Origin: Candidatus Nanoarchaeia archaeon | Lineage (GTDB): Archaea > Nanobdellota > Nanobdellia > SCGC-AAA011-G17 > DATDVL01 | Assembly: GCA_035289925.1 (NCBI GenBank) | Contig: DATDVR010000002.1 | Span: 10,590 to 74,589 of the forward strand | Reading direction: 5' to 3' | Length of the DNA stretch: 64,000 nucleotides | Part shown: in pieces, positions 7,622-48,443 of the stretch | How the letters are laid out: the number at the start of each line of letters is the position of its first letter | How positions within the stretch are numbered: position 1 is the first letter of the stretch | Made by a program: the position numbers and the translations under genes | Notes under the pieces: model-generated | The model's input: only the letters and a program-made list of their open reading frames with translations | Databases searched by the model: none | Told to the model about the DNA's origin: nothing

Positions 7622-7691
7622 TTATTGCCTACCACCTCAGAATTCCCTGATTAAGCTCTAAAATATAGCTTTATAAAACTAATGAATCAGA

Positions 7692-7791: not shown

Positions 7792-7816
7792 TTGTAAAAT
7801 TCTTAATTTCATAAAG

Positions 7817-7824
7817 TTTTTATA
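7817..7824. promoter_or_regulatory. Shared A/T box (TTTTTATA / TATAAAAA) between divergent tRNA-Ser and the membrane-protein gene
   Basis: 26 nt upstream of the tRNA 5' end (7791) on the minus strand. 23 nt upstream of ATG 7847 on the plus strand. Confidence 0.45.
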
Positions 7825-7846
7825 CCTATCTAAAAAAAGAATTTTA

Positions 7847-8353
7847 ATGGAGCCATTGTTTCATATAATAATTCCTACTTTATTATTGCTAGTTTTCTTT
7901 CCAAAACTAGACAAAAAAATGATATTAATGCTGTCCCCATTTTCTATAATAACTGACTTAAGCCATTTCATTCCTGGAACACATAGGGTAGTCTTTTACA
8001 ACATATTCTTCTTGACATTAATTCTATTGATAGTTTTTATCATGGCAGGCAAATTGCCTACTTTAATAGCAGGATATTTCCTGGTTTCACACTACCTTCT
8101 TGATTTGGGCGAGCCAGGCATAGCATTTTTCTGGCCTCTGACAAACAATCTTTACTATTTAAAATTCCAGATTCTAGAAAAGCTTGGGCAATGGTCTACT
8201 AATATTTATTTTGGGGTCAATGCAATAGGCGGAGGCTTAAGAGATCCTTTGGGAAAAGTAGTTGACACTTGGGGTTTTTTGGCAACATTCATTGTATTGA
8301 TAACATTCGCAATATCATATTACATAAAAAGAAAGCATTATAAATCTAAATAG
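7847..8353 (+). CDS. Small polytopic membrane protein (possibly DUF457-like membrane-bound hydrolase)
   Basis: ORF 7682..8353 trimmed to MEPLFHIIIP because its first 55 codons are antisense to tRNA-Ser. About 5 hydrophobic helices. The family guess is weak. Confidence 0.5.
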   Translation: MEPLFHIIIPTLLLLVFFPKLDKKMILMLSPFSIITDLSHFIPGTHRVVFYNIFFLTLILLIVFIMAGKLPTLIAGYFLVSHYLLDLGEPGIAFFWPLTNNLYYLKFQILEKLGQWSTNIYFGVNAIGGGLRDPLGKVVDTWGFLATFIVLITFAISYYIKRKHYKSK

Positions 8354-8365
8354 TATTTTCATATC

Positions 8366-8695
8366 ATGAAAAAAATCAGGCAAAGATTCCACAAGATAAC
8401 CTACGCAAACAGGATAAAAAATATAAAAGCAAGAAAATTTTCAGGCAAAGATTTGAAGCTTGACAAGAAAGGTTTCTTCTTGATTAAACTAGAAGGCAAT
8501 CATATAAAGGTTGCATTCTGTACTTATAATTTTAAGATAACAAAGGTAATAACTAGCAATAATGCTCAGGATTTGTACAAAGAAATAATAAAAAGAAATA
8601 TAGTTTCAAGTTTGCAGCATGCCGCTTACTTAGGCTATGAGCTTGAAAAGGCAGAATATGCATTGAAGCATAAACAAAAATATATACAAGGATGA
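8366..8695 (+). CDS. Small protein resembling the DUF4346 (pterin-binding-like) domain
   Basis: LDKKGFFLIKLEGNHIKV...LQHAAYLGYELEKAEYAL matches my recollection of the DUF4346 signature (HAAYLG.EL.kAe). Not verified. Confidence 0.45.
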   Translation: MKKIRQRFHKITYANRIKNIKARKFSGKDLKLDKKGFFLIKLEGNHIKVAFCTYNFKITKVITSNNAQDLYKEIIKRNIVSSLQHAAYLGYELEKAEYALKHKQKYIQG

Positions 8696-9051
8696 AAATG
8701 TTGAGCAAAAAATCTGCAGTAATTCTTGTTTTATTCTGTGCTTTGATAACTGCAACCGCTCAAGTTCTATGGAAAATAGGCTCTTCATACTTAGAATTTA
8801 ATATTTTAAGCCTAATTACTAACTTTCACTTCATTTTAGGCTGTATTTTATATGCAATAGGATTGGTTTTGCTACTGATAGCATTGAAATCTGCAGAATT
8901 AAACTTGCTTTATCCTCTTTTTGCATCAAGCTACCTATGGACAGTTCTGATTTCATATTTTTTTCTATCTGAATCATTGACAACATCAAAGATTTTAGGC
9001 ATTATATTGATTACATCTGGTGTAGCCTTCATAGGAAGTGAGGCAAGATGA
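8692..9051 (+). CDS. 4-TM EamA/SMR-like small membrane protein (ArnE/ArnF-like half transporter), subunit 1
   Basis: 119 aa with four hydrophobic helices. Start overlaps the previous stop, and its stop overlaps the next paralogous gene. Confidence 0.65.
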   Translation: MKMLSKKSAVILVLFCALITATAQVLWKIGSSYLEFNILSLITNFHFILGCILYAIGLVLLLIALKSAELNLLYPLFASSYLWTVLISYFFLSESLTTSKILGIILITSGVAFIGSEAR

Positions 9052-9383
9052 ATCTTTTAATATTATTTTTAACTTTGGTTGTCTCTTTCATAGGCGCTTT
9101 CGGAGCAATTTACCTAAAAAAAGCAGCACCAAGCTTCAAGCTTAATCTAAAAGGAATTTTATTTAACAAATATTTGATAATTGGTATAATTTTCTATGCT
9201 TTATCAGTATTAATCTTTATTTATCTCTTAAAATTTGCTGAAGTTTCTGTTTTGTACCCTGCAATAGCCACAGTTTATATCTGGGTTAGCCTGTTTTCCA
9301 CTAAGATGCTTGATGAAAAAATGAGTTCAAAGAAGTGGATGGGGGTTTTATTGATTATTTTGGGTGTAATTTTTATAGTATAA
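9048..9383 (+). CDS. 4-TM EamA/SMR-like small membrane protein, subunit 2
   Basis: 111 aa with four helices. Translationally coupled (ATGA overlap) to the paralog upstream, the typical paired-SMR arrangement. Confidence 0.65.
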   Translation: MNLLILFLTLVVSFIGAFGAIYLKKAAPSFKLNLKGILFNKYLIIGIIFYALSVLIFIYLLKFAEVSVLYPAIATVYIWVSLFSTKMLDEKMSSKKWMGVLLIILGVIFIV

Positions 9384-9426
9384 AAGATTAATAAGCTTTT
9401 TAAATAGTGATTTTATCATAATTAAT

Positions 9427-10368
9427 ATGTTAACAGACATTATAACAAATCAAAGATTGGCTTGGAAATCTAAAACTTTTAAATCAGATAAAGACTTTAC
9501 TTTAGATTTAAGAGGGGAAACTTTAGAAGAATTAAAAAAACTATCCCCTGAGATGGCAATAAATCTAAACAGCTCAAAGTTCTGGATTTTATCAGCATTC
9601 CCAAATTTACAAAACGATGTTGAAAACTTTAAACTTAATTTTTTAGATACTGGTTATGGTTTTGGTTTAATAAAAGGTTTGAATTCAAAAGATTTTTCTA
9701 AAGAAGCTCAAACTAATATTTATTGGTTGATAGAAAACATATTAGGCACTCCTTTATCCCAAAATATTAATGGTGAAAAATTAGTAGTTGTAAAAGATGA
9801 AGGAAAAAAAATGGAAGAAGGTGGAAGATACCACCATACAAGACAAGGTGGTTCTTATCATACTGACAGCCCTCAATGGTCCAATGCTCCGGATTACTTA
9901 GGATTATTATGTTATCACCATGCATGGAGAGGTGGAGAAAGCAAATTGTTAAGTGTATACTCTGTTCATAATAGGTTGTTAAAAGCAGATTCAAATTTGT
10001 TAAAAGTTTTATATTCGCCATTTCATTTTGACAAAAGAGGAGAATTCAAAGAAAAAGAATCGCCAACAACTTTAGAACCAATCTTTAAGCACGAAAATGG
10101 AAATTTATACTTTAGATACTTAAGAAACTATATAGACGCAGGACATGAGGTTTCTAAAAAGCCACTGACAAAAAAACAAATTCAAGCATTAAAGTTTCTT
10201 GATGAAGTTTTATTAGATGAAAAATTGGTAATAAGTATGAGGATGCATTCAGGAGATGTTCAATATCTAAACAACCACAGAATTGTCCATGGAAGGACAG
10301 CTTTTACTGACTTTAAAGACAAAGACAAAAAAAGAGTAATGTTAAGAAGCTGGGTAAAAAGAGCTTAA
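9427..10368 (+). CDS. Fe(II)/2-oxoglutarate-dependent oxygenase, TauD / gamma-butyrobetaine-hydroxylase-like
   Basis: HxD facial-triad motif in GGSYHTDSPQW. Distal NNHRIVHGRTAF matches the DN.R..HGR..F motif of the GBBH/TauD clade. Confidence 0.7.
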   Translation: MLTDIITNQRLAWKSKTFKSDKDFTLDLRGETLEELKKLSPEMAINLNSSKFWILSAFPNLQNDVENFKLNFLDTGYGFGLIKGLNSKDFSKEAQTNIYWLIENILGTPLSQNINGEKLVVVKDEGKKMEEGGRYHHTRQGGSYHTDSPQWSNAPDYLGLLCYHHAWRGGESKLLSVYSVHNRLLKADSNLLKVLYSPFHFDKRGEFKEKESPTTLEPIFKHENGNLYFRYLRNYIDAGHEVSKKPLTKKQIQALKFLDEVLLDEKLVISMRMHSGDVQYLNNHRIVHGRTAFTDFKDKDKKRVMLRSWVKRA

Positions 10369-11123
10369 TTTCCATATATTTTATTATACAATTCTTCCTT
10401 TGCTATTAAGTAATCTTCTTTGTAATTTATGTTCATCCATGCAAGCCCATCAGAGGTTACATAGTGCAAAGGCATTCCAGTTTTTTTAATAAACTCGTTT
10501 AAAATAACTTCGTAATTGAAGCCTTTTCCATTTTTTTCAACAAATTCTTTTAGATAATCATAAAATTTTTCAAAGAATTCTGAAGAAAATTTATTTATGC
10601 CTATTAATTCTCCAACAACATCATCTATATTTTTTTTGTAAAAAACTAGGCTAGAAATTTTATTATTTTTTCCAGTAATTATCATTTCATCACCAGTTTT
10701 AACTGTATATTTATTATCAACACTAACAACATTGTCGAACTTAGAATCAATAACCTTCCCAAAGATTTTAGAATCACAAAATACATCGGCATGAATAAAA
10801 AAAATAGGTTTTTTTCCTTTAAGCCATCTTTCTCTTGTAGCAAAAGTTCCCCAACCATGATTTGTGCTAGGATCTACGTCAACATAATCTATATTTATAT
10901 TTTTATATTTATCCCTAAAAGTCTCCATAACAAGTTCTTTTTTAAATCCAACAACTAAAGTAGCTTCCTTAAAGCCTCTTTCACTTAAGGCATCAAAATG
11001 ATATTCTATTATCTTTTTATTATTTATTTCCAAAAAAAATTTAGGCTTTTCTGGAGTTAATTCTTTAAGTCTTTTACTTTCTCCAGCAGCCAATATTATA
11101 ACTTGATAGTCAGAATTTTTCAT
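10365..11123 (-). CDS. Nucleotidyltransferase (LicC/PntC-like cytidylyltransferase family)
   Basis: N-terminal VIILAAGESKRLKELTPEKPKFFLEI (the LAAG.G.R...PK signature). 252 aa. Overlaps the upstream methyltransferase gene by 4 nt. Confidence 0.75.
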   Translation of the reverse strand: MKNSDYQVIILAAGESKRLKELTPEKPKFFLEINNKKIIEYHFDALSERGFKEATLVVGFKKELVMETFRDKYKNINIDYVDVDPSTNHGWGTFATRERWLKGKKPIFFIHADVFCDSKIFGKVIDSKFDNVVSVDNKYTVKTGDEMIITGKNNKISSLVFYKKNIDDVVGELIGINKFSSEFFEKFYDYLKEFVEKNGKGFNYEVILNEFIKKTGMPLHYVTSDGLAWMNINYKEDYLIAKEELYNKIYGN

Positions 11124-11836
11124 TTTACTTTTTTTAAATATCCACCATTATTAAAAGACAGATAAAATTTCTCTCTTGTCTTATCAACTACGAAATTTTT
11201 GTTGGTTTTCATGAATTCTCGAGCAGCTTCTAATGGACCTTCACCAAAGTCAGGCCTTATCTTATTTATGTTAGTATCCTCAACTATAATATAGCTTCCT
11301 TTTGTTACAATTTTGCTGTAAATAGCAAGTTCTTTCATTACATAGTCTTTTTTATGAATAGCATCAAGAATAACAAGTACTTTATCCCCCAGTTTTATAT
11401 TTTTCTTAACTTGTGCAATGATTTTTGGATCTATACTAGATCCCAGAAGATAGTTAATTCTTTTATGTTTAGGTCTTTTCTTATCTTCTTCGGTATCTAT
11501 GGTAAAAATTTTACCTTTATCGACTATATCACATATTGAAGCTAAAAATAAAGCGCTTCCTCCATGAGCAGTTCCTGTTTCTATTATAACATCAGGTCTT
11601 AATTGATAAATAATTTCCTGATAGCACCAAAAATCAGTTGGGCATTTAAGAGTTTGGGCTCCAAGCCAATAAGTATTTCCCCAATTTTTACCCCATCTTC
11701 TAGAATCAAAATAAAGTTTGTGAAAACTATCAACTAAATTTTTTTCCATTCTGCTAGAAATGTAAAGTCTATGATGAACTAAATTTAGAATGGTTTTTAT
11801 TTCAATTTTTATCAATGACAATAACTTTTTAATCAT
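11120..11836 (-). CDS. CmcI-family (cephalosporin hydroxylase-like) class I methyltransferase
   Basis: WLGAQTLKCPTDFWCYQEIIYQLRPDVIIETGTAHGGSALFLAS is the characteristic CmcI-family core. Confidence 0.7.
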   Translation of the reverse strand: MIKKLLSLIKIEIKTILNLVHHRLYISSRMEKNLVDSFHKLYFDSRRWGKNWGNTYWLGAQTLKCPTDFWCYQEIIYQLRPDVIIETGTAHGGSALFLASICDIVDKGKIFTIDTEEDKKRPKHKRINYLLGSSIDPKIIAQVKKNIKLGDKVLVILDAIHKKDYVMKELAIYSKIVTKGSYIIVEDTNINKIRPDFGEGPLEAAREFMKTNKNFVVDKTREKFYLSFNNGGYLKKVK

Positions 11837-11858
11837 TCAAATTTCAACAAGAAAATGC

Positions 11859-11867
11859 TTTATAAAA
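11859..11867 (-). promoter_or_regulatory. TATA box 23 nt upstream of ATG 11836 (minus-strand operon)
   Basis: TTTATAAAA in the divergent intergenic region. Spacing implies a leaderless or near-leaderless transcript. Confidence 0.45.
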
Positions 11868-11929
11868 CTTATGAAATAGAGGTAGTATAATTAGATACTA
11901 ATAGGTGACGAAATTTGAATAGGATAAAA

Positions 11930-11937
11930 TTTATAAA
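11930..11937 (+). promoter_or_regulatory. TATA box 22 nt upstream of the pepM ATG (11959)
   Basis: TTTATAAA. Second box of the divergent promoter pair. Confidence 0.45.
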
Positions 11938-11958
11938 GAGTTCAGATGGTTTAAAGTT

Positions 11959-13584
11959 ATGCCAAGAACTAAGTCTAATACTCTAAAAGAACTTTTAAAA
12001 AAAGAAGGTCCTATTATTTTGTTAGGGGCGCACGATCCTTTAACTGCAAAGATGGCAGAAGAGGCAGGTTGCGATGCTATTTGGTCTTCAGGTTTTGAAA
12101 TTTCAGCTTCTTATGGCGTTCCAGATGCTAATATTATTCCTATGTCTGTAAATTTAGACGTTGCAAGAAGAATAAAAAAAGCTGTAAAAATTCCAGTAGT
12201 TGCAGATTGTGACAATGGATATGGTAATGTAAATAATGTTAAAACAACTGTAGAAGAATTTGAATCAGCAGGTATAGACGCAATATGCATCGAGGATAAT
12301 TTATATCCTAAGAATCATAGTTTTTGGGATAAAAGTAGAAATTTAGAATCAATACCTAGCTTCAGCGGAAAGATAAGTGCAGGGATATCAGCAAGACTTG
12401 AAGATTTAGTATTTATAGCTAGAACAGAGGCATTAATTCAAAAACTTGGTGTTGAAGAAGCATTGAAGAGAGCACATGCTTATGCAGATGCAGGGGCAGA
12501 TATGATTTTAATACATTCCAAAGCAAAAAAACCAGATGAAGTTCTAGAATTCGCAAGTAAATGGAATCAAAGAGTTCCATTAGTTGCAGTTCCAACAATT
12601 TATGATACAATTTCTGCTAACGAATTATACAAAGCAGGAATAAAAATGGTAATTTTTGCAAATCATGGAGTAAGGGCAGAAGTAAAAGCAATAAAAGAAA
12701 AATTTGGTAAATTAATGCAAACAAAAAGAGCTTCTGATATCCGTGAAGAAATAGCATCTTTACAAGAAATCTATGATTTAGTTGGTGTTAAAGAAATGCA
12801 AGAAAATGAAGAAAAATTTACGCCTAAAGATGAAAAAGTAAAAGCAGTTATTTTAGCAGCTGGTTTTGATCAAGCAATGGCTCAATTTATTCAAAACAAA
12901 CCAAAATGCATGTTAGAAGTAGATGGAAAAAGTCTTTTAGAAAAGCAAATTGATTCGCTTCATGAAGTAGGAATCAATGATATTACCGTTATAAGAGGTT
13001 ATAAAAAAGATGCAGTAAATGTAAAAGGTGTTAAATACTTTGACAACGATAATTACGCCAACACATCATCAATTGATGGATTATTCTTAGCAAAAGATGA
13101 ATTAAATGCTTCAACAGTTGTTATGTATTCAGATATCTTATTTGAAAGACAAATATTAGAAAGACTTTTGACAGCCAAAGGGGATATAAGTTTGGTAGTT
13201 GACCGTTCATTAAAAGAAAATGTTGATAGAACTAAACATCTTGATAAACTAGAAATAGTTCAAACCAGCAGAGGTTCATCATCAGAAACAAGGTATATGG
13301 GGGACAATATTATTTTAAAAGCTGGAAGAGCCTTAAAAGATTTAAGTTTACGTGAAGCTGATGGAGAATTCATTGGAATGGCTTATATAAGCAAAAAAAT
13401 GTGGCCAGATATGTTAAAAATTTATGAAAGTATGCCGAAGGATAAACCAAAAGGATTAATTGCTCTTTTTGATAAAGCAATTGAAGCAAAGCATAAAGTA
13501 AGTGCAGTTGATATTTACAGAGGATGGACAGAAATACATAGTTATCAAGATTACGCTAAATTATTAGAAAGATTTTCATCTTAA
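11959..13584 (+). CDS. pepM: Phosphoenolpyruvate mutase (PepM) fused to a C-terminal nucleotidyltransferase domain
   Basis: N-terminal domain has LLGAHDPLTAKMAEEAGCDAIWSSGFEISASYGVPDANI, VVADCDNGYG and IEDNLYPKNHS (variant of EDKx5NS). From about aa 294, KAVILAAGFDQ...KPKCMLEV is an NTP-transferase fold. Followed directly by ppd. Confidence 0.85.
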   Translation: MPRTKSNTLKELLKKEGPIILLGAHDPLTAKMAEEAGCDAIWSSGFEISASYGVPDANIIPMSVNLDVARRIKKAVKIPVVADCDNGYGNVNNVKTTVEEFESAGIDAICIEDNLYPKNHSFWDKSRNLESIPSFSGKISAGISARLEDLVFIARTEALIQKLGVEEALKRAHAYADAGADMILIHSKAKKPDEVLEFASKWNQRVPLVAVPTIYDTISANELYKAGIKMVIFANHGVRAEVKAIKEKFGKLMQTKRASDIREEIASLQEIYDLVGVKEMQENEEKFTPKDEKVKAVILAAGFDQAMAQFIQNKPKCMLEVDGKSLLEKQIDSLHEVGINDITVIRGYKKDAVNVKGVKYFDNDNYANTSSIDGLFLAKDELNASTVVMYSDILFERQILERLLTAKGDISLVVDRSLKENVDRTKHLDKLEIVQTSRGSSSETRYMGDNIILKAGRALKDLSLREADGEFIGMAYISKKMWPDMLKIYESMPKDKPKGLIALFDKAIEAKHKVSAVDIYRGWTEIHSYQDYAKLLERFSS

Positions 13585-13632
13585 GATTAAAGGTTCAATA
13601 ACCTTATAAATAGTTTAAAGGACATTTTAAAA

Positions 13633-14814
13633 ATGGAAGCAAATGAATTTTATGACATACTTAAATCAAAGGGATTTGATTTTTATACTGGAGTTCCTTG
13701 TTCATTCTTCAAAGGTGCAATAAACAAAATTCTTTCAGATGATGATTCTAAATATATCGCTGCAGCAAACGAAGGAGCAGCAGTTGCATTGGCAGGCGGA
13801 GCTTATTTAGCAGGAAAAAATCCAGTTGTCATGATTCAAGAATCTGGTTTGGGTAATACTATAAACCCTTTGACTTCTTTGAGCTTAATTTACAGGCTAC
13901 CCTTTTTGATGCTAATTAGTGGCAGAGGATACAGAATCAAAGACGAACCTCAGCACCAGATTATGGGAGCAAGGCTTCATGAGGTTTTAAGCGCAATAAG
14001 CGCAAGGAAAGATCAGATAACTGCAGTAGAAGCAAAAAAAGATTTTACAATTAGAAGTTTAGATATGCCTGAAGATCGATTCTGGCTAGAAAAAGCATTG
14101 GACAGTTATTTGGGTATTGAATTTAAAGATGGTTCTCCAAAGGCATACATTGTAAAAAAAGGCGCAATAGGCGAGTATGAACTAAAGAAAAGAGATGTAA
14201 AAAATACAAAAGAGCTTCCAGAATTTAAGCAAAAAATGGGAGAAGTAATTTTAAGTAGATTCCAGGCGCTAGAAGAAATTGTAAATGAACTTGAAGGAAA
14301 CGAGGCAGTTATTTCAACAACAGGAAAGATTTCAAGAGAATTATTTACAATAAATGACCAACCTAATAATTTTTACATGCAGGGTTCAATGGGACATGCC
14401 TCAGCAATCGGATTAGGGGTAGCATTAAATACAAAAAAGAAAGTCTATGTCCTTGATGGAGATGGCGCTTTAATAATGCACCTAGGTTCCTTGTCAACAA
14501 TTGGACATTATGCTCCAGAAAATCTTGTTCACATCTGCTTAGATAATGAAGCTTACGGAAGCACTGGAAGCCAGGCAACAACATCTTCAACAACTGCACT
14601 TGATTTAGCTGCTTTAGCCTGTGGTTACAAGGAAGTACATAGAGTTTATTCAAAAGAATCTCTAAAAGAAACAATGCAGGAAATAAAAAATAAAAAAGGA
14701 CCTATTTTTGTGTTAGTAAAAACAAACCAGAAAGAAAAAGAAGTTGAAAGAATCACAAAAAAGTATGAAACCGAGCAAATAACTAAAAATTTCATGAATT
14801 TCTTGAATAAATAA
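13633..14814 (+). CDS. ppd: Phosphonopyruvate decarboxylase (ThDP-dependent)
   Basis: N-terminal FYTGVPCSFFKG, ThDP-binding LDGDGALIMHLGSLSTIG, about 390 aa. Lies immediately downstream of pepM. Confidence 0.85.
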   Translation: MEANEFYDILKSKGFDFYTGVPCSFFKGAINKILSDDDSKYIAAANEGAAVALAGGAYLAGKNPVVMIQESGLGNTINPLTSLSLIYRLPFLMLISGRGYRIKDEPQHQIMGARLHEVLSAISARKDQITAVEAKKDFTIRSLDMPEDRFWLEKALDSYLGIEFKDGSPKAYIVKKGAIGEYELKKRDVKNTKELPEFKQKMGEVILSRFQALEEIVNELEGNEAVISTTGKISRELFTINDQPNNFYMQGSMGHASAIGLGVALNTKKKVYVLDGDGALIMHLGSLSTIGHYAPENLVHICLDNEAYGSTGSQATTSSTTALDLAALACGYKEVHRVYSKESLKETMQEIKNKKGPIFVLVKTNQKEKEVERITKKYETEQITKNFMNFLNK

Positions 14815-14815
14815 A

Positions 14816-15925
14816 ATGGAAAACCACTACAACCCTACAGAAATAATTTTTGGAGAGAAATCTTTAGAAAGACTTCCAGAAGTTGCAAAAAGATTCAAGT
14901 TTAAAAAAGTTTTCCTCGTAACTGGAAGAAATTCTTCAGACAGTTCTGGATTAACAAATAAAGTGGCAGATTATATTGGTGAATTGCAGCAGTATAAAGT
15001 AAATCCAAACCCAACAACTTTTGACATAGAACAAGGAATATCAATAATTGAAAAAGGTATGCCTTACCTATTCATTGGATTGGGTGGCGGAAGCGCAATA
15101 GACACAGCAAAAGCAATTTCAGTCCTGTCAAAAAATAAAGGTTTAGTGGCAAACTATCAAGATAAAAAACTGCAGATAAAAAACAGGGGACATCCATTGA
15201 TTGCAATCCCAACAACAGCAGGAACAGGTTCAGAAGTCACTCCTTATTCTTCATTGATGAAAGCGGACAAAACAAAAGCAAGTATAGCGCATAACTTCCT
15301 TTATCCAAATGTAGCAATAATAGATCCAGAATTAACTTACAATTCACCAAAAGAAGTCATAGCATGTTCAGGCATGGACGCATTATGCCAGGCAATAGAA
15401 TCTTTCTGGTCAAGAAATAACAGTCCTTTTTCAGAATCTCATGCATTGAAAGCAATAAAACTAATTTATCACAATATAAAAGAATCTTTCAGCAATGAAA
15501 ACGCTTTTGAAGCCAAACGAGCTATGTCACTAGGAAGTTGTTTGGCAGGAATTGCAATAAGCCAAACAAAAACAACTGCAGTTCACGCAGTATCATATCC
15601 AATAACAGGAATTTTCAATGTTCCTCACGGCCATGCATGCGCTTTAACTTTGTCTTCTTTTTTAAATTATAACAAATGTGCAGCGCCAGAAAGAGTATCA
15701 AAGATGGCAGAAATTTTAGGTTATGATAAAGTTGAAGATGCAGCAGAAGGCATTAACAATTTAATGGATTATCTATGTCTTGAAAGAAAGCTTTCAAAGC
15801 TTGGAATTGATGAATCTGGGATAGAATTAATAATAAAAAATGGTTTCAATCCTGACAGAGTGAGCAACAATCCAAGAAAATTAACAGAAGAAGATCTAAG
15901 AAAAATGTTAACAAACTTATTGTAG
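14816..15925 (+). CDS. Iron-containing alcohol dehydrogenase; predicted phosphonoacetaldehyde reductase (PhpC/FomC-like)
   Basis: GLGGGSAIDTAKAIS and HAVSYPITGIFNVPHGHACA (Fe-ADH metal-binding histidines). Start is 2 nt after the ppd stop. Confidence 0.8.
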   Translation: MENHYNPTEIIFGEKSLERLPEVAKRFKFKKVFLVTGRNSSDSSGLTNKVADYIGELQQYKVNPNPTTFDIEQGISIIEKGMPYLFIGLGGGSAIDTAKAISVLSKNKGLVANYQDKKLQIKNRGHPLIAIPTTAGTGSEVTPYSSLMKADKTKASIAHNFLYPNVAIIDPELTYNSPKEVIACSGMDALCQAIESFWSRNNSPFSESHALKAIKLIYHNIKESFSNENAFEAKRAMSLGSCLAGIAISQTKTTAVHAVSYPITGIFNVPHGHACALTLSSFLNYNKCAAPERVSKMAEILGYDKVEDAAEGINNLMDYLCLERKLSKLGIDESGIELIIKNGFNPDRVSNNPRKLTEEDLRKMLTNLL

Positions 15926-15973
15926 ATTGATGATTAGCAACATTTTTAAAGATGCTATTTTTAAGTTCTTGTA

Positions 15974-17377
15974 ATGGGTATAAAAAACGTCGTGATGAAG
16001 AATTTAGGCTGGCTTGTTTTATCTGATGTAGCCGACAAGATACTAAGCTTTATTGTTGTAACCCTTCTTGCAAGATATTTAGGTGCCAATAATTTTGGAA
16101 TCTACTCTTTTGTAATATCATTTGTCTTAATCTTTGGGACAATTTCAGATTTTGGTTTTCCAACAATTACCTTAAGAGACTTGGCAAGAAACAAGAAAAA
16201 AAGCAGCTATTACATAGGCAATATAATTACATTAAAGTTGATAATAAGCATAATTGTCTTTTCTTTGATAGTTCTTTCAATTAAAATGCTTAACAAAAGT
16301 CCAGAAATTAATTATTTAGTTTATTTAGGTGGTTTATGGGCAATAACCTCTTCATTTACGCAGTTTTTCTCTGCAATATTCAGGGCTTATGAGAAAATGT
16401 TTTATGAAACCCTAGTGGTCACATTTGAAAACATACTTAAGACAACTTTTGTTATTTTTATTGTAGTAAAAAGTCTGTCATTGAGCAGCATTTTCCTTCT
16501 TTACACAGCTTCCACAGTATTTTCTTTCTTGTTAGCTTTCTTTTTCATAGTAAAGCACTTCACAAAATTCACTTTAAGGTTTGATTTTTCATTTTTCAAG
16601 TATATCATAAAGGAAAGTTGGCCAATAATGTTAGGGGCATCATCAGTAACAGTTTACGCTTATGTAAACTCAATTTTCTTGTCAGTATATCATACAGATT
16701 TGTTAGTAGGATTGTTCAACGCAGGCTATAAATTAGTAATTGTTTTGGCAGCAGGAAGAAGAATCCTAGCAGTTGCAATTTATCCCGCATTGTCAAGGTT
16801 TTACGTCCAATCTAAGGAAAAGCTTAAAGCGCTTATCTTGAAGTCAGAAAAAATTGCATTAACTTTCGCAATACCGGCCACTTTTGCTACAATAATTTTG
16901 GCAGAAAAAATAATAAATCTGGTATATGGCTCAGCTTATGTTCCAGGAGCAATTGCATTGAAAATAACAATCTTCCAGATGCTTATAATCTATATAAATT
17001 TGTCATTTATTCATATGCTTAATATTTCTGGGAACCAAAGATGGTATTTATTTACTGTGACAAGCGGAGCCTTATTGAACTTGGCTCTGAACTTTATACT
17101 AGTGCCTAAATTTGGCATGGTAGGTGCAGGAATTTCTACAGTAATATCAGAATTTTTAGTATTATTAATCTCCTACATCAAAACTTACAGCTTGATTCAA
17201 ATAAATATTTTACCATTGTTTGTAAAACCAATAATAGCTTCAATAATAATGTCAATAGTCTTGCTTTTAATAATCAATTGGAACGTTTTAATTATTACAG
17301 TAATAGGATTAGCAACGTATTTAGTTACATTATATCTAATAAATGGTATTAGAAAAGAAGACTTTCATCTAGAATGA
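15974..17377 (+). CDS. Wzx-like oligosaccharide/polysaccharide flippase (MOP superfamily)
   Basis: 467 aa with about 12-14 TM helices. The N-terminal LGWLVLSDVADKILSFIVVTLLARYLG pattern is typical of the polysaccharide biosynthesis protein family. Confidence 0.8.
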   Translation: MGIKNVVMKNLGWLVLSDVADKILSFIVVTLLARYLGANNFGIYSFVISFVLIFGTISDFGFPTITLRDLARNKKKSSYYIGNIITLKLIISIIVFSLIVLSIKMLNKSPEINYLVYLGGLWAITSSFTQFFSAIFRAYEKMFYETLVVTFENILKTTFVIFIVVKSLSLSSIFLLYTASTVFSFLLAFFFIVKHFTKFTLRFDFSFFKYIIKESWPIMLGASSVTVYAYVNSIFLSVYHTDLLVGLFNAGYKLVIVLAAGRRILAVAIYPALSRFYVQSKEKLKALILKSEKIALTFAIPATFATIILAEKIINLVYGSAYVPGAIALKITIFQMLIIYINLSFIHMLNISGNQRWYLFTVTSGALLNLALNFILVPKFGMVGAGISTVISEFLVLLISYIKTYSLIQINILPLFVKPIIASIIMSIVLLLIINWNVLIITVIGLATYLVTLYLINGIRKEDFHLE

Positions 17378-17988
17378 AGATTTGTGTTATATTTTATAGT
17401 TTTATAACTGCTGCTTAAAACATAAGGATTCGATCTCATTTTTGAATCAACTTTAATAAGTACATATCTTAAAGCCAATGCAGGATATCTATAAGACAAA
17501 TAAGTTTCATAAAGATGCATATTTCTCAAGCTTGAATTAGCCCATTTCTGAATTAAATATGTCCATGGCAAGAACTTGTTAGTCCTTATTTTTATTTCTC
17601 TTTTTATTATTATGAATCTAGAATCTTTCATGTTTTTGTAGTAGCTTCTATCTCTTCCAATTTCAGTATTGATATCAAAATGGTCCATTGCATGAAGAGA
17701 AAATTCATGTTTCAAAAAAGGATTATGCATTCTAGTATTTGTAAAATGCGGTACTATAATTTCCAATCTTCCTCCAATCTTCAATATTCTATGAAATTCA
17801 GTTATTGTAAAAACAGCATTGTCTAAGTGAGGTAAAGTATTTTTAGAATAAATTTCATCAACAGAATTGTCTTTAAACTTTAATTTCTTGTTGACATCCA
17901 TTACATAGTCTACACCAGGTAATTTAACCAAATCTACTCCTTTGAATCCTGGTTTCTTGTCAGTGCCGCATGCAATGTCTAATTTCAT
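17365..17988 (-). CDS. Class I SAM-dependent methyltransferase
   Basis: MKLDIACGTDKKPG (motif I-like), VDEIYSKNTLPHL and ILKIGGRLEI. ORF 17365..18039 trimmed to M18, which has an A/T box (GCTTAAAAA) about 26 nt upstream. The longer start is not excluded. Confidence 0.65.
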   Translation of the reverse strand: MKLDIACGTDKKPGFKGVDLVKLPGVDYVMDVNKKLKFKDNSVDEIYSKNTLPHLDNAVFTITEFHRILKIGGRLEIIVPHFTNTRMHNPFLKHEFSLHAMDHFDINTEIGRDRSYYKNMKDSRFIIIKREIKIRTNKFLPWTYLIQKWANSSLRNMHLYETYLSYRYPALALRYVLIKVDSKMRSNPYVLSSSYKTIKYNTNLHSR

Positions 17989-18076
17989 AATAAATTTTAC
18001 AAAAAAACTGTTTTTAAGCTTTGCTAATTGAAGATACATTCATAAGATTTAAAAAAGGGCCTTAGTTATTACTACT

Positions 18077-18808
18077 ATGTTCACTTTTCGAGACATTAGA
18101 AAAAAATCTTTAAAGCCCATCTGCACTTTTGGAGAAAGGATTTATGATCCAATAGCAATTCCTTTTGTCTGGTTTTTGGCAAATTTCACCTTCATCAATC
18201 CTTACATGGTTAATTTCATTAATTTTTTATCAAGTATTTTGTCAGGTTACTTCTTTTTCAAAGGAAACATAACTGCAGGAGCTTTACTATTCGCTCTAGC
18301 TTCATTGGCAGATTTTTCAGATGGCAAATTAGCAAGGTTAAAATTCAAGCCAAGCCTTTTAGGGATGTTCACAGATTTGAATGGAGACAAAATAAGGGTT
18401 CTATTCCCATTAATAGGGTTGACAGCAGCCTATTTTAATGCAACAAACGACATTTCAATATTTTACTGGGCATTAATCTTTCTTTACACAAATTTATTTT
18501 TCCCATTTGCAGAAGCTTACATGTATTACCAATCTATGAGACGTGGTCTAACAGATAGACACATGATGGGATCTTCTTTAGACTCAAGAAAAATCAGCAA
18601 GATACGTGCATTTTTGCAAAAAAGAAGAGTTGATTTAATGTATACAACAGCAGACCAAGAGCAATTAATCTTCTTGTTATTCCCATTGTTAAGCCACTTA
18701 AATTTTGAATTTATTAAATACGGTTATATTTTAGCTACAGTAACTTACATAGTTTGGATGTTATTAGTTAGATATCCAAGGCAAGTAAGAAGAATAGTAA
18801 GTGCTTAG
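18077..18808 (+). CDS. CDP-alcohol phosphatidyltransferase-family membrane protein, paralog 1
   Basis: Complete D-x2-DG-x2-AR-x8-G-x3-D-x3-D motif: DFSDGKLARLKFKPSLLGMFTDLNGD. Polytopic. Confidence 0.8.
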   Translation: MFTFRDIRKKSLKPICTFGERIYDPIAIPFVWFLANFTFINPYMVNFINFLSSILSGYFFFKGNITAGALLFALASLADFSDGKLARLKFKPSLLGMFTDLNGDKIRVLFPLIGLTAAYFNATNDISIFYWALIFLYTNLFFPFAEAYMYYQSMRRGLTDRHMMGSSLDSRKISKIRAFLQKRRVDLMYTTADQEQLIFLLFPLLSHLNFEFIKYGYILATVTYIVWMLLVRYPRQVRRIVSA

Positions 18809-18843
18809 AAAGCTTTAAAAACACGATATAAAGGAGAAATATT

Positions 18844-19599
18844 ATGTATACCTATCAAGATTTAAAGAAAATTCAAAAACCAGTCTTGCCATTTGCAGGA
18901 CGTTTATTTGATCCAATTGCAGAACCATTAGTCCTTTTTCTTGCTAATTACACAAGAATAACTCCAACAATGCTTAATTGGGGCAATATTATAATTAGTC
19001 TTGCTTCAGCATATTATTTTTATTCAGGTGAAGTAATTTTAGGAGCAATTCTATTTGCAATAGCATTTTTATGTGACTGCATGGATGGCAATCTCGCAAG
19101 GATGAAGTTCAAAGCAAACAGATTTGGCATGTTTATGGAAGTAAATGGAGACAAGATAAGAGTTATGCTTCCATTATTAGGATTAACACATACTTATTAT
19201 TTAGCAACAAATGACATTTCAATATTTTACTGGGCATTCGCTTTTATTTCAACAAACTTATTCTTCCCATTCGCAGAGGCTTATATGGGATATCAATCAG
19301 GGAAGAAAGGTTATGAAAAAAGTTATGTAGTAACTGATGCTAATGCAGGAGCTCAATTTACAACAGGAAAGTTAGCAAGAATGAGAAATTTCCTTAGAAA
19401 AAGAAGATTTGATATTATTTATACTGGTTTAGACCAAGAAGTTGCAGCAATATTAATATTCCCATTGCTAAGTTATTTTAGTTTTGAATTAATAAAATGG
19501 GGTTTCATATTCGCAGCATTCTCCTATACTTTATGGGTTTTAATCATTAGGTACCCAAGGCAAATAAAAAATATTCTTGAAGAAGATAGGAAGAATTAA
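18844..19599 (+). CDS. CDP-alcohol phosphatidyltransferase-family membrane protein, paralog 2 (third Asp replaced by Glu)
   Basis: DCMDGNLARMKFKANRFGMFMEVNGD. Shares ATNDISIFYWA...TNLFFPFAEAYM with paralog 1. Confidence 0.75.
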   Translation: MYTYQDLKKIQKPVLPFAGRLFDPIAEPLVLFLANYTRITPTMLNWGNIIISLASAYYFYSGEVILGAILFAIAFLCDCMDGNLARMKFKANRFGMFMEVNGDKIRVMLPLLGLTHTYYLATNDISIFYWAFAFISTNLFFPFAEAYMGYQSGKKGYEKSYVVTDANAGAQFTTGKLARMRNFLRKRRFDIIYTGLDQEVAAILIFPLLSYFSFELIKWGFIFAAFSYTLWVLIIRYPRQIKNILEEDRKN

Positions 19600-19624
19600 T
19601 AAGATTATCTACTAGGTAAATAAC

Positions 19625-21223
19625 ATGAAAAAAGGAAGAATTTTATTGATGAGTCCAAATTTAAGGGGACTTCAAGATGGGATTATACGTATTCAACCAG
19701 GTTTAGGTATAGGTTATGTTGCAGCAGTTGCACGACAAATGGGACATGAAGTTTTTGTAAGAGACACTGCACTAGAAGGATATGACAAAGTTTCAGCAAT
19801 AGATGATCGTACAATTGGCGTTGGAGAATCAGATAAAGACATTGCAGATTATATTTCAAATGTTCACCCAGATGTTTTAGGTATATCAGTTTTATTTTCA
19901 AATTTAATAGACTCTGGTCATAATATTGCTAGAATTGCAAAAGAAGTAAATCCAAAAATTAAGGTAATTATTGGCGGTAACCATGTAAGCAATGCCAGTC
20001 TTGATTTTATTGTTGCTCAAGATCCTACTTCAGGTTTGCCTAAAAGGTTCCCAGATATTGAAAATAAAAATGTTGATTATGCAATGCGTGGAGAAGTTGA
20101 TTTCTTATCAGGAGAATTATTTGATGCAATAATAAATGAAAGAGATCCTACTAATATAGATGGTTTAATTTTTAAAAAGAAAGAACATACAGGTCCAAAA
20201 GTAGAAGGGCAAAAAGTTATTAAATTAAATAATCAAGAGTCTATTTTTATTAACAAAAAAACAAAAGTTGCAAATTTGACAAGCTTACCATCCCCAGCAA
20301 GAGACTTGATGAACATGGAAGGCTATTTCAAAATAGCAAGATTTCATTCTGCAAAATCAAAATCAGACAGAGTATTGAATGTAATGTGCTCTCGTGGATG
20401 CCCAGAGCATTGTACTTTCTGTACAACTCCCGAACAATTTGGACAAACTGTAAGGTGGAGAGATCCTCAAAATATCTATAATGAAATAAAATGGGGCATT
20501 GATAATCTAAAAATTGGTGAAGTCCAGTTTGAAGATGACAGTTTAACAGCACATAGAGTAAATTTAGAAAAATTATGTACTTTAATCGAGCCTTTAGGAA
20601 TTTTATGGTGTACTCCAAATGGTACAAAAGTAAATTACCAACAAGGTGGCGGAATGGAAGGTGGAGTCTTCAAAAAACAACTAGAGATGTACAAAAGAAT
20701 GAAAGCTTCAGGTTGTTACAGTATAACTTTAGCTTGCGAAAGTGGTTCCCAAAGAGTATTGGATAAAATTATAGGTAAAAGATTGAACTTAGAAGATGTT
20801 GCTCCTGCAATAGAAGCAGCAAAGAAAGCGGATCTTTATGTTCATACTTTCTGGGTTGTAGGATTCCCAGGAGAAACAAGGGAAGAAATGGAACAAACTA
20901 TTGAATTTGCTAAAAAAACAGGTGCAGACAGCTATTCATTAGCAATTTTAAGTCCACTGCCAGGAACCCCAATTTATCATCAAGTTATGAGAGAAAAACT
21001 TTGGTGGAATCAAGAAGATAATTTAGAGCACTTAATGTACAGAAATTCATTAGTCAAAGTAGACGGATTTAAAGATGGAGTTGAATTCCAAAGATGGGTA
21101 GATACTAAACAAAAAGAATTAAACTTGTTACTTAAAATAAAAGATCCTAAAAAATTCGAAGATAACTACAGCAGGGGCGGCAGAATTTTAATAGAAGATA
21201 AAAACTTATTAAGACAAGGTTAG
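19625..21223 (+). CDS. Cobalamin-binding (class B) radical SAM enzyme, Fom3-like methyltransferase candidate
   Basis: N-terminal B12-binding-type domain (RILLMSPN...GLGIGYVAAVARQMGHEV...ISVLFSN). Radical SAM motif CSRGCPEHCTFC (Cx3Cx2C). 532 aa. Last gene of the plus-strand phosphonate operon. Confidence 0.8.
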   Translation: MKKGRILLMSPNLRGLQDGIIRIQPGLGIGYVAAVARQMGHEVFVRDTALEGYDKVSAIDDRTIGVGESDKDIADYISNVHPDVLGISVLFSNLIDSGHNIARIAKEVNPKIKVIIGGNHVSNASLDFIVAQDPTSGLPKRFPDIENKNVDYAMRGEVDFLSGELFDAIINERDPTNIDGLIFKKKEHTGPKVEGQKVIKLNNQESIFINKKTKVANLTSLPSPARDLMNMEGYFKIARFHSAKSKSDRVLNVMCSRGCPEHCTFCTTPEQFGQTVRWRDPQNIYNEIKWGIDNLKIGEVQFEDDSLTAHRVNLEKLCTLIEPLGILWCTPNGTKVNYQQGGGMEGGVFKKQLEMYKRMKASGCYSITLACESGSQRVLDKIIGKRLNLEDVAPAIEAAKKADLYVHTFWVVGFPGETREEMEQTIEFAKKTGADSYSLAILSPLPGTPIYHQVMREKLWWNQEDNLEHLMYRNSLVKVDGFKDGVEFQRWVDTKQKELNLLLKIKDPKKFEDNYSRGGRILIEDKNLLRQG

Positions 21224-22137
21224 CTAAACTCTTTTCTTCCGTAATTTTCAAATAAGCCATCAAACAATCCTATTAAGAACCATTTGGTGCTCTTAAATTT
21301 CAATTTGACAATCCTTCTTAACAAATTAGATGGAGTTGCAAAGAAAAACAGGTATAGGAAGAAGAAAAATTTATCTGAAAACCTTGCATGCTTCTCCATT
21401 ACCAATATTCTATTCCTTGTTGTGTAATAGTCAAATATAATTCTGGTTGGTTGTGATCTCCCACCTTTATGCCAAACTTTGGCTTTTGGAGCAATTAATA
21501 CTTTATATCCAGCATTTTTAACTCTTAATTGATAATCTAGAGCTTCATAATATACAAATATATTATCATCATAAAATCCTACTTTTTTTATCTTGTCAAC
21601 ATCGTACATCACAGAGCCAGCCCATACATATTCAGCTTCTTTTATGTGGTCAAACTGTCCTTTGTCTTCTGCTTCTCCAAAAGTGCAGACTAATCTTCCA
21701 GTTCTCCATACCATTTTTCTTGCAACGCTCATCAATAGGTTTCTTTTTTCAAAATCATAATATTTAGAACCTACTGCAGCCGCTTTCTTGTTTTTCTGAA
21801 TAACATTCACCATTTCATTCAAGCAATTTCTGTCAATCTCAACGTCATTGTTCATTATCCAGACATACTTGAAGCCGTTGTTTATTGCATAATTTATTCC
21901 TACGTTGTTGCCTCCGCTGCATCCTAAGTTTCCATTGTTGAAAATATGTATAACTTTGGGATATTTCTTCTTCAAGTAAACAAATCCTTTGTTGTCTTTA
22001 GAGTTGTCAGCAATTAATATTTTAAAATTCTTGTAGTTCAGTTTAGAAGCTGTTTTTATAAAATCCTCAGTATCAGGCAAATTATTGTAGTTTAAAGTTA
22101 CAATCAAGACTTTAGGTTTTTTCATAAAATTATTCAA
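21220..22137 (-). CDS. GT2 glycosyltransferase (rhamnosyltransferase/WbbL-like)
   Basis: KVLIVTLNYNN start and NNDVEI (DxD-like), 305 aa. Confidence 0.8.
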   Translation of the reverse strand: MNNFMKKPKVLIVTLNYNNLPDTEDFIKTASKLNYKNFKILIADNSKDNKGFVYLKKKYPKVIHIFNNGNLGCSGGNNVGINYAINNGFKYVWIMNNDVEIDRNCLNEMVNVIQKNKKAAAVGSKYYDFEKRNLLMSVARKMVWRTGRLVCTFGEAEDKGQFDHIKEAEYVWAGSVMYDVDKIKKVGFYDDNIFVYYEALDYQLRVKNAGYKVLIAPKAKVWHKGGRSQPTRIIFDYYTTRNRILVMEKHARFSDKFFFFLYLFFFATPSNLLRRIVKLKFKSTKWFLIGLFDGLFENYGRKEFS

Positions 22138-48319: not shown

Positions 48320-48443
48320 CTAGATTTTGATATATTTAAAGGTTTTTAGAAGGTTTATAAGCTTTATTAATGAATAGTTTTAAGATGAGATAGTAGTGTC
48401 AATACACTACGTGGAGCTTATACCTATTGTGTCTTTATACTTA

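Follow-up and report, generated by a model that had tools for sequence, protein, structure and literature searches.

The window analysed here, a stretch of 64,000 nucleotides (about 32% G+C) from a Candidatus Nanoarchaeia archaeon, carries a group of genes in which a PepM-like (phosphoenolpyruvate mutase-like) protein fused to a nucleotidyltransferase is encoded together with a phosphonopyruvate decarboxylase (Ppd), an iron alcohol dehydrogenase (Fe-ADH), a Wzx flippase, CDP-alcohol (cytidine diphosphate-alcohol) phosphotransferases (CPT1-CPT3) and a cobalamin-binding radical S-adenosylmethionine (SAM) enzyme (Table 1). Profile searches with Pfam and NCBIfam and the listing of open reading frames (ORFs) reproduced all eleven gene and domain calls of an earlier reading of this DNA (the original prediction), each gene lying where it had been placed. 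The assignment to a DPANN-like organism is likewise confirmed, as the window proteins are exact matches to NCBI entries HLD14986-HLD14996 from the metagenome-assembled genome (MAG) of a Candidatus Nanoarchaeia archaeon, where they lie on a contig of 165,908 bp; SecDF and two STT3/AglB genes are also present in the window. The cluster is real, coherent and conserved, and on balance we favour, with moderate confidence, its interpretation as a phosphonate tailoring cluster of the 2-hydroxyethylphosphonate (HEP) branch, serving to decorate the cell envelope. Gene content, family membership and conserved linkage were directly observed, and from these we infer all chemical steps, the nucleotide, the sites of methylation and hydroxylation and the acceptor.

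Table 1. Genes of the putative phosphonate cluster and their immediate neighbours in the 64-kb window.
Feature	Positions	Strand	Support
Two half-size EamA membrane proteins (119 and 111 aa)	8692-9383	+	Pfam EamA, E 1.3e-6 and 6.6e-8; ORFs overlap
FrbJ-like Fe(II)/2-oxoglutarate dioxygenase, 313 aa	9427-10368	+	Pfam TauD, 6.6e-34
Stand-alone PntC/LicC-like nucleotidyltransferase, 252 aa	10365-11123	-	Pfam NTP_transferase/NTP_transf_3
CmcI/rhamnosyl-O-methyltransferase-family SAM methyltransferase, 238 aa	11120-11836	-	Pfam RMNT_CmcI, 1.7e-58
PepM-like domain (residues 1-290) fused to LicC/PntC-like domain (residues ~295-541), 541 aa	11959-13584	+	PEP_mutase, 9e-60; NTP_transf_3
Phosphonopyruvate decarboxylase (Ppd), thiamine diphosphate type, 393 aa	13633-14814	+	TIGR03297
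Group III iron alcohol dehydrogenase, 369 aa	14816-15925	+	Pfam Fe-ADH, ADH_Fe_C
Wzx/MOP-family flippase, 467 aa	15974-17377	+	Pfam Polysacc_synt, 7e-36
SAM-dependent methyltransferase, 224 aa, antisense to flanking genes	17365-18039	-	Pfam Methyltransf_11, 2.1e-7
CDP-alcohol phosphotransferase CPT1, 243 aa	18077-18808	+	PF01066, 39.6 bits
CDP-alcohol phosphotransferase CPT2, 251 aa	18844-19599	+	PF01066, 41.6 bits
Class B (cobalamin-binding) radical SAM enzyme, 532 aa	19625-21223	+	Pfam B12-binding and Radical_SAM
Glycosyltransferase family 2 (GT2)	21220-22137	-	Pfam
PMT_2/ArnT-like glycosyltransferase of the GT-C type	22156-23547	-	Pfam
Glycosyltransferase family 9 (GT9)	23537-24802	-	Pfam
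CDP-alcohol phosphotransferase CPT3, 245 aa	24804-25541	-	PF01066, 28.6 bits

The stretch 11959-21223 had been taken as one operon; however, the antisense SAM-dependent methyltransferase gene, absent from the gene list of the original prediction, is located between the Wzx and CPT1 genes, and the stretch thus comprises at least two plus-strand units. Three genes had been described as divergent from pepM: this holds for the stand-alone nucleotidyltransferase and the CmcI-type methyltransferase, but not for the TauD-like gene. The latter closes a plus-strand run (7682-10368) and is convergent with the nucleotidyltransferase gene, the two overlapping by 4 nt; both EamA ORFs are found directly upstream of it and in the same direction. 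Outside the range considered in the original prediction, CPT3 is the first gene of a run in the same direction that continues with the GT9, PMT_2 and GT2 ORFs, all of them contiguous or overlapping.

The coherence of this gene set was assessed in other genomes. One genome per GTDB species was scanned with an alignment of the radical SAM family, resulting in 80 loci whose 10-kb neighbourhoods were searched with the window proteins by tblastn. Single-linkage clustering of the neighbouring ORFs merged PepM, nucleotidyltransferase, Ppd and ADH through multidomain fusions, and linkage was therefore taken from per-query tblastn and hidden Markov model searches. In the inner set of homologues exhibiting at least 47% identity to the window enzyme (40 loci, several on contigs too short to judge), pepM was found within 10 kb of the radical SAM gene at 23 loci, mostly as Fom1-like fusions of a cytidylyltransferase (CyTase) with PepM, whilst ppd was present at about 20 and Fe-ADH at about 13 of the 40. 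A gene of the CDP-OH_P_transf family stands beside the radical SAM gene at about 12 loci (L002, L008, L011, L013, L016, L021, L022, L027, L031, L039, L043 and L053), which belong to Nitrohelix, Planctomycetia, Omnitrophota, three Nanoarchaeota/Woesearchaeota, three Methanosarcinales and three or four SAR11 genomes, with six or more phyla represented. Linkage of the radical SAM and CDP-alcohol transferase genes to pepM in relatives, which the original prediction had named as a check, is thus observed. The clade of the window radical SAM enzyme (clade W) is carried by many SAR11 single-cell genomes, Nitrospinota, Rhodospirillales, Planctomycetia and Gammaproteobacteria, as well as by Saccharibacteria (candidate phyla radiation, CPR), Omnitrophota, Methanosarcinales and several Nanoarchaeota/Woesearchaeota. 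On a Nanoarchaeota contig the genes run in the order CyTase-PepM, Ppd, nucleotidyltransferase, ADH, radical SAM and CDP-OH transferase, an order recorded for L001 and L013. The SAR11 single-cell genome AG-894-A09 (L016) exhibits almost the same gene set as the window, arranged as CyTase-PepM, CDP-OH transferase, TauD-like, nucleotidyltransferase, TylF methyltransferase, radical SAM, ..., ADH, ..., LicD, Ppd: the module is not particular to this archaeon.

Further genes recur in these neighbourhoods. Beside the radical SAM clade (L016-L053, mostly SAR11 single-cell genomes; the P0010 contig; L085) we observed a PhyH-family dioxygenase at 13 loci, an unannotated 327-aa protein at 10 and an adenosine phosphosulfate (APS) kinase at 7, with a sulfotransferase or ATP sulfurylase in some; these neighbours hint at sulfated or otherwise further modified phosphonates. 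A Campylobacter family combining ppm-ppd, radical SAM and APS kinase genes is already on record (PMC8942020). In the Woesearchaeota genome SI039_bin115 (L039), an ORF of 1164 aa (6298-9792, minus strand) joins Fe-ADH, CTP_transf_like, NTP_transferase and a class V aminotransferase resembling 2-aminoethylphosphonate (AEP) transaminase (AEPT), and adjoins a clade-W radical SAM gene, LicD, Ppd and a PepM-nucleotidyltransferase fusion. A second, different DPANN phosphonate cluster is present in the Nanoarchaeota genome GCA_018816725.1 (L085/L086): its B12 radical SAM genes number three, including one of the Fom3 clade (46% identity), and it further holds CyTase-PepM, Ppd, ADH, nucleotidyltransferase, Wzx, ATP sulfurylase and APS kinase. 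Phosphonate clusters thus recur in Nanoarchaeota MAGs.

The early steps encoded in the window point to HEP. With 358.3 bits, Ppd passes the cut-off of the phosphonopyruvate decarboxylase model TIGR03297 (312.5) and fails both sulfopyruvate decarboxylase models (beta, 180 against 221.5; alpha, 96 against 148), so that phosphonate chemistry is favoured; an assignment to the sulfopyruvate type, which would have undermined the original prediction, was not obtained, and a sulfonate pathway was rejected as the principal interpretation on the same scores. The Fe-ADH gene begins 2 nt after ppd, making pepM, ppd and adh contiguous. We propose that the Fe-ADH acts as a phosphonoacetaldehyde reductase giving HEP, based on its position and on the linkage of ADH at about 13 loci with pepM and radical SAM genes. 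Its sequence weighs against so specific a role: as a generic group III enzyme with generic PDB matches, it is not diagnostic of substrate, and it scores 235 bits on TIGR03405 (Phn_Fe-ADH), below the cut-off of 424. By tblastn, no AEP-type aminotransferase, second PepM or Fom1-type CyTase was detected in the 64-kb window. The absence of an AEP transaminase there agrees with the original prediction, and the inference that PepM, Ppd and ADH lead to HEP and not to AEP therefore stands. Neither LicD nor a cupin domain (HppE/HEPD/MpnS-type) nor a DUF402 domain (FomD-type) was found in any window ORF scanned, which bears out the claim that an HppE-type epoxidase and a FomD-like hydrolase are missing here.

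Nucleotidyl activation is the rule in such phosphonate clusters (PMC6697681), and activation by LicC/PntC-type enzymes is plausible here judging from sequence similarity. Among PDB entries, the PepM-fused domain matches LicC (1jyk, 2e-16) and, more weakly, PntC (6pd1, 5e-6). The stand-alone enzyme has its best match over residues 7-249 in 6pd1 (2e-10), the Treponema phosphonate cytidylyltransferase-AEPT fusion (PntC-AEPT), followed by LicC 1jyk (2.4e-9), and it is also similar to the PntC of a Mycetohabitans cluster (E 9e-13). Both domains therefore fit the LicC/PntC-like assignment made previously. The 541-aa fusion aligns end to end with aepX of Burkholderiales, a PepM-PntC fusion, at 30.8% identity over 543 aa. 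Cytidine triphosphate (CTP) and HEP are the presumed partners of these enzymes.

The oxygenase had been described as TauD/GBBH-type. Its TauD family membership is clear (Table 1), but the GBBH part was not upheld: its closest solved relatives are FrbJ (5eqn, E 3.5e-28) and 7n7v (2e-26), whereas GBBH and TmpA match far more weakly (E 3e-4 to 6e-3), and an identity as GBBH or TmpA was hence rejected. A guess that 7n7v represents DfmD was also dropped, the DfmD paper reporting that no crystal structure was obtained. The protein carries HxD at residues 145-147. FrbJ is a hydroxylase of the FR-900098 phosphonate pathway, and we propose that the FrbJ-like enzyme of the window hydroxylates the phosphonate head group. 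At the SAR11 loci L016, L021 and L026, a pair of TauD-like and nucleotidyltransferase genes (32-36% identity) adjoins a clade-W radical SAM gene. The CmcI-type methyltransferase scores 138 bits on NF045824, below the cut-off of 400.

Taken in order, the favoured tailoring route would begin with conversion of phosphoenolpyruvate to phosphonopyruvate by the PepM-like domain, with decarboxylation to phosphonoacetaldehyde by Ppd pulling the equilibrium, followed by reduction to HEP by the Fe-ADH. The fused LicC/PntC-type domain and/or the stand-alone PntC-like enzyme would then join HEP and CTP to give cytidine monophosphate-activated HEP (CMP-HEP), and tailoring would take place on the nucleotide, with the B12 radical SAM enzyme (most likely a C-methylase, by analogy to Fom3), the FrbJ-like hydroxylase and the SAM methyltransferases as candidates. 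One or more of CPT1-CPT3 would transfer the phosphonyl group with release of CMP, the acceptor being a hydroxyl of a membrane-anchored lipid or of a polyprenol-linked sugar or glycan. Finally, Wzx (possibly with the EamA pair) would flip the product, which would be displayed through the surrounding glycosylation machinery. The idea that a CMP-activated hydroxyalkylphosphonate is transferred and exported, put forward in the original prediction, is thus plausible in outline, although both the relation to Fom3 and the novelty of the transferase logic had been overstated.

As neither LicD nor a FomD-type hydrolase was found in the window, the CDP-alcohol phosphotransferases are the only candidates there for consuming a CMP-phosphonate. 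All three exceed the PF01066 gathering threshold of 22 bits, and CPT1 and CPT2 are 51% identical. We compared them with the PROSITE-type motif DGxxAR-x8-GxxxDxxxD: CPT1, which is 43% identical to the CPT of L039, exhibits the complete motif; in CPT2 the third Asp is replaced by Glu; and CPT3 has a spacer of 12 residues and His in place of the fourth Asp. PDB similarity is limited to AF2299, PgsA and PIPS at E 0.003 or weaker. CPT3 clusters with 13 neighbours of radical SAM homologues, and this subfamily is kept beside the radical SAM clade in other phyla. A point against the transferase role is that CPT3 and almost all relatives linked to pepM or radical SAM genes carry G, A, S, T, V or H where the fourth motif Asp would stand; across the aligned linked family (the twelve loci listed above and the window members), only CPT1 and CPT2 of the window keep an acidic residue at this position. 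Most linked members may therefore, lacking this Asp, perform chemistry different from that of the canonical enzymes.

The nature of the acceptor separates the favoured reading from the alternative that fares best, in which the route to the CMP-phosphonate is the same, but the product is an archaeal phosphonolipid made by a Kennedy-type transfer to archaeol or a diether glycerol, the glycosylation genes being unrelated. CDP-alcohol phosphotransferases classically make lipid head groups, and the closest predicted analogue, the Burkholderiales 'Group 1', has been read as a phosphonolipid pathway (PMC8942020). In addition, LPG_synthase_TM, part of the bacterial phosphonolipid core, has a family member in the window: this membrane protein (45327-46256, minus strand), together with a type I phosphodiesterase/nucleotide pyrophosphatase (43106-44146, minus strand), is situated some 22-24 kb from the cluster, and the family also neighbours radical SAM genes in Nitrohelix L002 and Nanoarchaeota L085. 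Against this, Wzx sits inside the pepM unit and CPT3 is co-directional with the GT9, PMT_2 and GT2 genes, which, with the glycosylation locus around them, favours a lipid-linked glycan as acceptor; LicD and glycosyltransferases also accompany the module in L016 and L039. Many DPANN archaea do not carry out lipid synthesis, which further counts against a phosphonolipid. We regard this alternative as rather unlikely but still a serious contender, the GT2/PMT_2/GT9 run indicating that the acceptor probably has a glycan or lipid-linked-glycan context.

The surroundings of the cluster contain more genes of this kind. The EamA pair may form a small flippase for lipid-linked substrates, on the model of ArnE/ArnF-type pairs, although its membership of the cluster is uncertain. 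Together with a small GT2 (6926-7621, minus strand) and PMT_2/ArnT-like proteins of the GT-C type (the one in Table 1 and those at 39008-40564 and 41575-43137), the pair makes up an Arn-like arrangement, reminiscent of the synthesis, flipping and transfer of a sugar on polyprenyl phosphate. Two STT3/AglB-like oligosaccharyltransferases are encoded in tandem on the minus strand (58750-61383, 877 aa; 61421-63970, 849 aa), preceded by an initiating transferase of the GT4 family (Glycos_transf_4; 57724-58710).

The radical SAM enzyme exhibits the class B architecture, with Pfam matches to B12-binding (1.5e-11) and Radical_SAM (2.3e-19) and the motif CPEHCTFC (CxxxCxxC) at residues 259-266. More than 1,100 homologues were found at E < 1e-20: apart from a twin of 99% identity, the next best is only 57% identical. 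Several results weigh against treating it as a Fom3-type C-methylase. Identity to authentic Fom3 (Q56184) is 30% (219 bits), barely higher than the 26-30% found with unrelated class B enzymes, and in a neighbour-joining tree Fom3 groups with proteins sharing 37-80% identity with it, among them one from another pepM cluster of Nanoarchaeota (46%), with the window enzyme placed in a separate clade. Orthology to Fom3 was hence rejected. The best NCBIfam model is the Sden_1168 P-methyltransferase, not a C-methyltransferase; on NF038361 the window enzyme scores 204 bits, below the cut-off. Fom3 itself, however, matches the Sden_1168 model better (289 bits), so the name of the model says nothing on the methylated atom; a P-methyltransferase reading, based on this model and on a hit of PhpK, was rejected for this reason and because no phosphinate-forming genes are present. 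The Fom1/Fom2/FomC/Fom3 logic of the original prediction is retained inasmuch as the enzyme, like most of its inner-clade relatives, is encoded with CyTase, PepM, Ppd and Fe-ADH, but only as analogy. Fom3 acts on CMP-HEP (PMC8158854), and by analogy it is reasonable to suppose that the window enzyme would methylate a phosphonate bound to CMP.

A different substrate has to be considered for this enzyme. Outer members of the clade (40-45% identity; L045 and L048-L052, from Lindowbacteria, Deltaproteobacteria and Desulfobacula) adjoin CmcI-like methyltransferases, with no pepM or ppd gene within 10 kb; the clade is thus not exclusively linked to phosphonates, which again tells against the assigned role, and its outer branch probably acts on a non-phosphonate substrate. 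It could be argued that in the window, too, the radical SAM enzyme, possibly with CmcI and the SAM methyltransferases, modifies a sugar or lipid made by the glycosylation genes, in which case plain or hydroxylated HEP would be attached. The low identity to Fom3 and the two other radical SAM genes of the window, both in sugar context, would be in keeping with this. The pepM linkage at 23 of the 40 inner loci, however, spans very different genomes and glycan contexts, and at L001 and L013 the radical SAM gene is embedded between the early phosphonate genes and CPT in the order given above. We therefore consider such a non-phosphonate role unlikely and retain tailoring of the nucleotide-bound phosphonate.

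The weakest link in the claim of carbon-phosphorus (C-P) bond formation is the PepM motif. By PDB similarity the domain is closest to PepM (5unc, 3.7e-81), followed by phosphonopyruvate hydrolase (PPH; 2dua, 1.4e-69) and Mytilus PepM (1.5e-56), with lyases at 4.5e-28 or weaker; within the isocitrate lyase superfamily it belongs to the PepM/PPH branch, and a neighbour-joining tree places it among PepM-type representatives and apart from the PPH clade. The question of whether it clusters with non-mutase members of the superfamily is thereby answered in favour of PepM. PPH identity itself (TIGR02321, 252 bits) was rejected, as the PPH clade is separate and exhibits the motif EDK..KD[TS]S. The domain nonetheless departs from the standard description of a mutase in ways that count against it: it does not reach the equivalog cut-off of TIGR02320 (278.6 against 319.55 bits), and the diagnostic loop EDKx5NS is replaced by EDNLYPKNHS, i.e. 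IEDNLYPKNHSF (12289-12324; PepM residues 111-122), with Asn122 (Mytilus numbering) changed to His and the lysine of EDK to Asn. The corresponding loops are EDKRFPKVNS in 5unc, EDKLFPKTNS in Mytilus and EDKTFPKDTS in PPH. This anomaly had been overlooked in the original prediction.

These deviations invite the interpretation that the domain is no mutase and makes no C-P bond, the cluster instead processing a scavenged phosphonate or making a non-phosphonate head group (e.g. a sulfonate, through a decarboxylase of the sulfopyruvate type and a reductase of the sulfoacetaldehyde type), the more so as the ADH scores 198 bits on the sulfoacetaldehyde reductase SarD (below cut-off) and a related Nanoarchaeia locus (L022) carries a degenerate PepM and no Ppd. 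Several observations speak against it. The metal- and phosphoryl-binding residues are kept except N122, and Mytilus S46, G47, D58, D85, D87, E114, K120, S123, R159 and H190 are all retained in the alignment. Whilst EDKx5NS is found in 26 of 27 pepM matches from related loci (the exception being L022), a search of 1.84 billion representative proteins placed the window PepM in an 'EDN' clade, to which about 40 of the 144 close representatives belong and whose members have N, C, H or S, mixed among one another, at the position equivalent to Mytilus Asn122. P0289 (EDN...NS, a clade neighbour of the window PepM) and P0290 (Cys type) are PepM-nucleotidyltransferase fusions followed by a Ppd-like decarboxylase. 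Together with the Ppd scores and the separateness of the PPH clade, these results make a non-mutase quite improbable in our view, and the window PepM is probably, from sequence comparison, a working mutase of a variant subgroup.

Members of this clade with EDN...[C/H/S]S include P0290-P0294, P0305, P0307, P0308 and P0326, many of them fused to a nucleotidyltransferase and followed by a Ppd-like gene. The PepM of L022 (7633-8487; Candidatus Nanoarchaeia archaeon SMAG_U8099) is a CyTase-PepM fusion that adjoins a clade-W radical SAM gene; its loop reads IKDNVGLKKYS, no Ppd was found within 10 kb, and it may be decaying or repurposed.

That the cluster yields a diffusible product, whether a fosfomycin-like antibiotic or another small-molecule phosphonate, is highly improbable: the gene set resembles Fom1/Fom2/FomC/Fom3 in outline and FrbJ-like hydroxylases occur in antibiotic pathways, but an HppE-type epoxidase, a FomD-type hydrolase, a resistance gene and an exporter of the kind usual in antibiotic clusters were all not found among the scanned window ORFs, membrane transferases, flippase and glycosyltransferases are embedded in the cluster, and the radical SAM enzyme falls outside the Fom3 clade.

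Elsewhere in the window, a radical SAM protein (46265-48319, minus strand) is split by an intein (Intein_splicing and Hint_2 at residues 230-406). A stretch of low G+C content (48000-54300; 26-29%) carries genes for a SocA/Panacea antitoxin-domain protein, a PD-(D/E)XK nuclease, a HEAT-repeat N6/N4 DNA methylase and a CfrBI-type restriction endonuclease and is probably a mobile defence islet.

Approximately half of microbial phosphonate clusters are thought to decorate cell surfaces, with almost no products or transferases known (PMC8942020, PMC6697681). The divergent CDP-alcohol phosphotransferase subfamily is likely to be the long-sought phosphonyl transferase for part of such pathways. More tentatively, and as a possibility rather than an expectation, the radical SAM clade and the linked transferase subfamily may together define an undescribed, horizontally spread pathway, in which a C-methylated and/or hydroxylated hydroxyalkylphosphonate is built on CMP and moved directly to envelope lipids or glycans; its carriers would then range over SAR11, Nitrospinota, Planctomycetia, CPR bacteria, Methanosarcinales and DPANN. 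No marine bacterium is more abundant than SAR11, which is also predicted to be a major producer of phosphonates (PMC8931226). Knowing the product of the module shared with SAR11 would inform both the cycling of phosphorus in the sea and the question of where the alkylphosphonate esters of seawater originate. In DPANN archaea, whose envelope mediates contact with the host, modification of the surface by phosphonates would be a novelty. Inventories filtered by EDKx5NS leave out the EDN clade, suggesting an undercount of C-P producers: should the EDN...[C/H/S]S proteins prove to be mutases, such inventories would miss part of the C-P-forming enzymes. We regard the pepM-linked radical SAM clade, the CDP-alcohol transferase subfamily shared with SAR11 and the EDN clade of PepM as the most valuable leads.

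Amongst known systems, the nearest relative is the 'Group 1 phosphonolipid' or 'Burkholderiales_CDP-OH' family, which is predicted and uncharacterised (Yu et al. 2013, as summarised in Li & Horsman 2022; PMC8942020). Its seven-gene core comprises PepM-PntC, Ppd, AEPT, a 2-oxoglutarate oxygenase, a second PntC, a CDP-OH transferase and an LPG-synthase-TM protein (PMC8942020), and in Mycetohabitans rhizoxinica (pBRH01) the order is CDP-alcohol transferase, 2-oxoglutarate oxygenase, LPG-synthase-TM, PntC, PepM-PntC, Ppd and AEPT. Five roles are shared with the window: the PepM-PntC fusion, aligned as described above, the adjacent Ppd (35.5%), the second PntC, the Fe/2-oxoglutarate oxygenase and the CDP-alcohol transferase. 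The bacterial cluster, however, carries an AEP transaminase where the window has the Fe-ADH of the HEP branch; the oxygenases differ in family, BLAST revealing no similarity between the FrbJ/TauD-like protein and the 2OG-Fe(II) oxygenase of Mycetohabitans; the Mycetohabitans PepM motif is canonical (EDKQFPKTNS) and that of the window variant; and LPG_synthase_TM, part of the Group 1 core, is 24 kb away in the window. The window adds a B12 radical SAM enzyme, Wzx and two methyltransferases, and has three CPTs instead of one. It thus represents an architecture related to the Group 1 family and not a member of it. Attachment of a CMP-phosphonate by a CDP-alcohol transferase, presented as new in the original prediction, had already been predicted (PMC8942020), but the version with HEP branch and radical SAM enzyme appears undescribed: no description of it or of its phylogenetic spread was found in the literature searched, nor was one of a DPANN phosphonate pathway, of Fom3 combined with a phosphonolipid or of propylene-yielding marine phosphonates.

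In the early fosfomycin pathway of Streptomyces, Fom1 (CyTase-PepM), Fom2 (Ppd), FomC (ADH) and Fom3, the B12 radical SAM C-methylase of CMP-HEP, act in sequence (PMC8158854). The window shares the order of chemistry up to nucleotide-bound HEP, a class B radical SAM gene likewise accompanies pepM, ppd and adh, and many relatives of its radical SAM gene adjoin a Fom1-type CyTase-PepM fusion. In the window fusion, by contrast, the domain order is opposite and the nucleotidyltransferase is NTP_transf_3/LicC-like, that of Fom1 being CTP_transf_like; FomD hydrolase and Fom4/HppE epoxidase were not found in the scanned ORFs, and membrane transferases and a flippase are encoded instead. The tailoring of surface glycans with phosphonyl groups that depends on PntC (Rice et al. 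2019; PMC6697681) resembles the window in a LicC-like cytidylyltransferase encoded with or fused to PepM and in the expected destination at the cell surface, but characterised PntCs prefer AEP and the downstream transferases considered in that study are LicD-like, whereas the window combines CDP-alcohol phosphotransferases with the HEP branch and has no LicD in the scanned ORFs. HEP-branch surface phosphonates are represented by the methylphosphonate cluster of Nitrosopumilus maritimus and the HEP-exopolysaccharide of Stackebrandtia nassauensis (PMC8942020). The window differs from these in having no MpnS/HEPD-type cupin dioxygenase and in adding the radical SAM enzyme, the FrbJ-like hydroxylase and the CDP-alcohol transferases; what it shares with both, one of them an archaeon, is the PepM-Ppd-Fe-ADH route to HEP encoded together with glycan-related genes.

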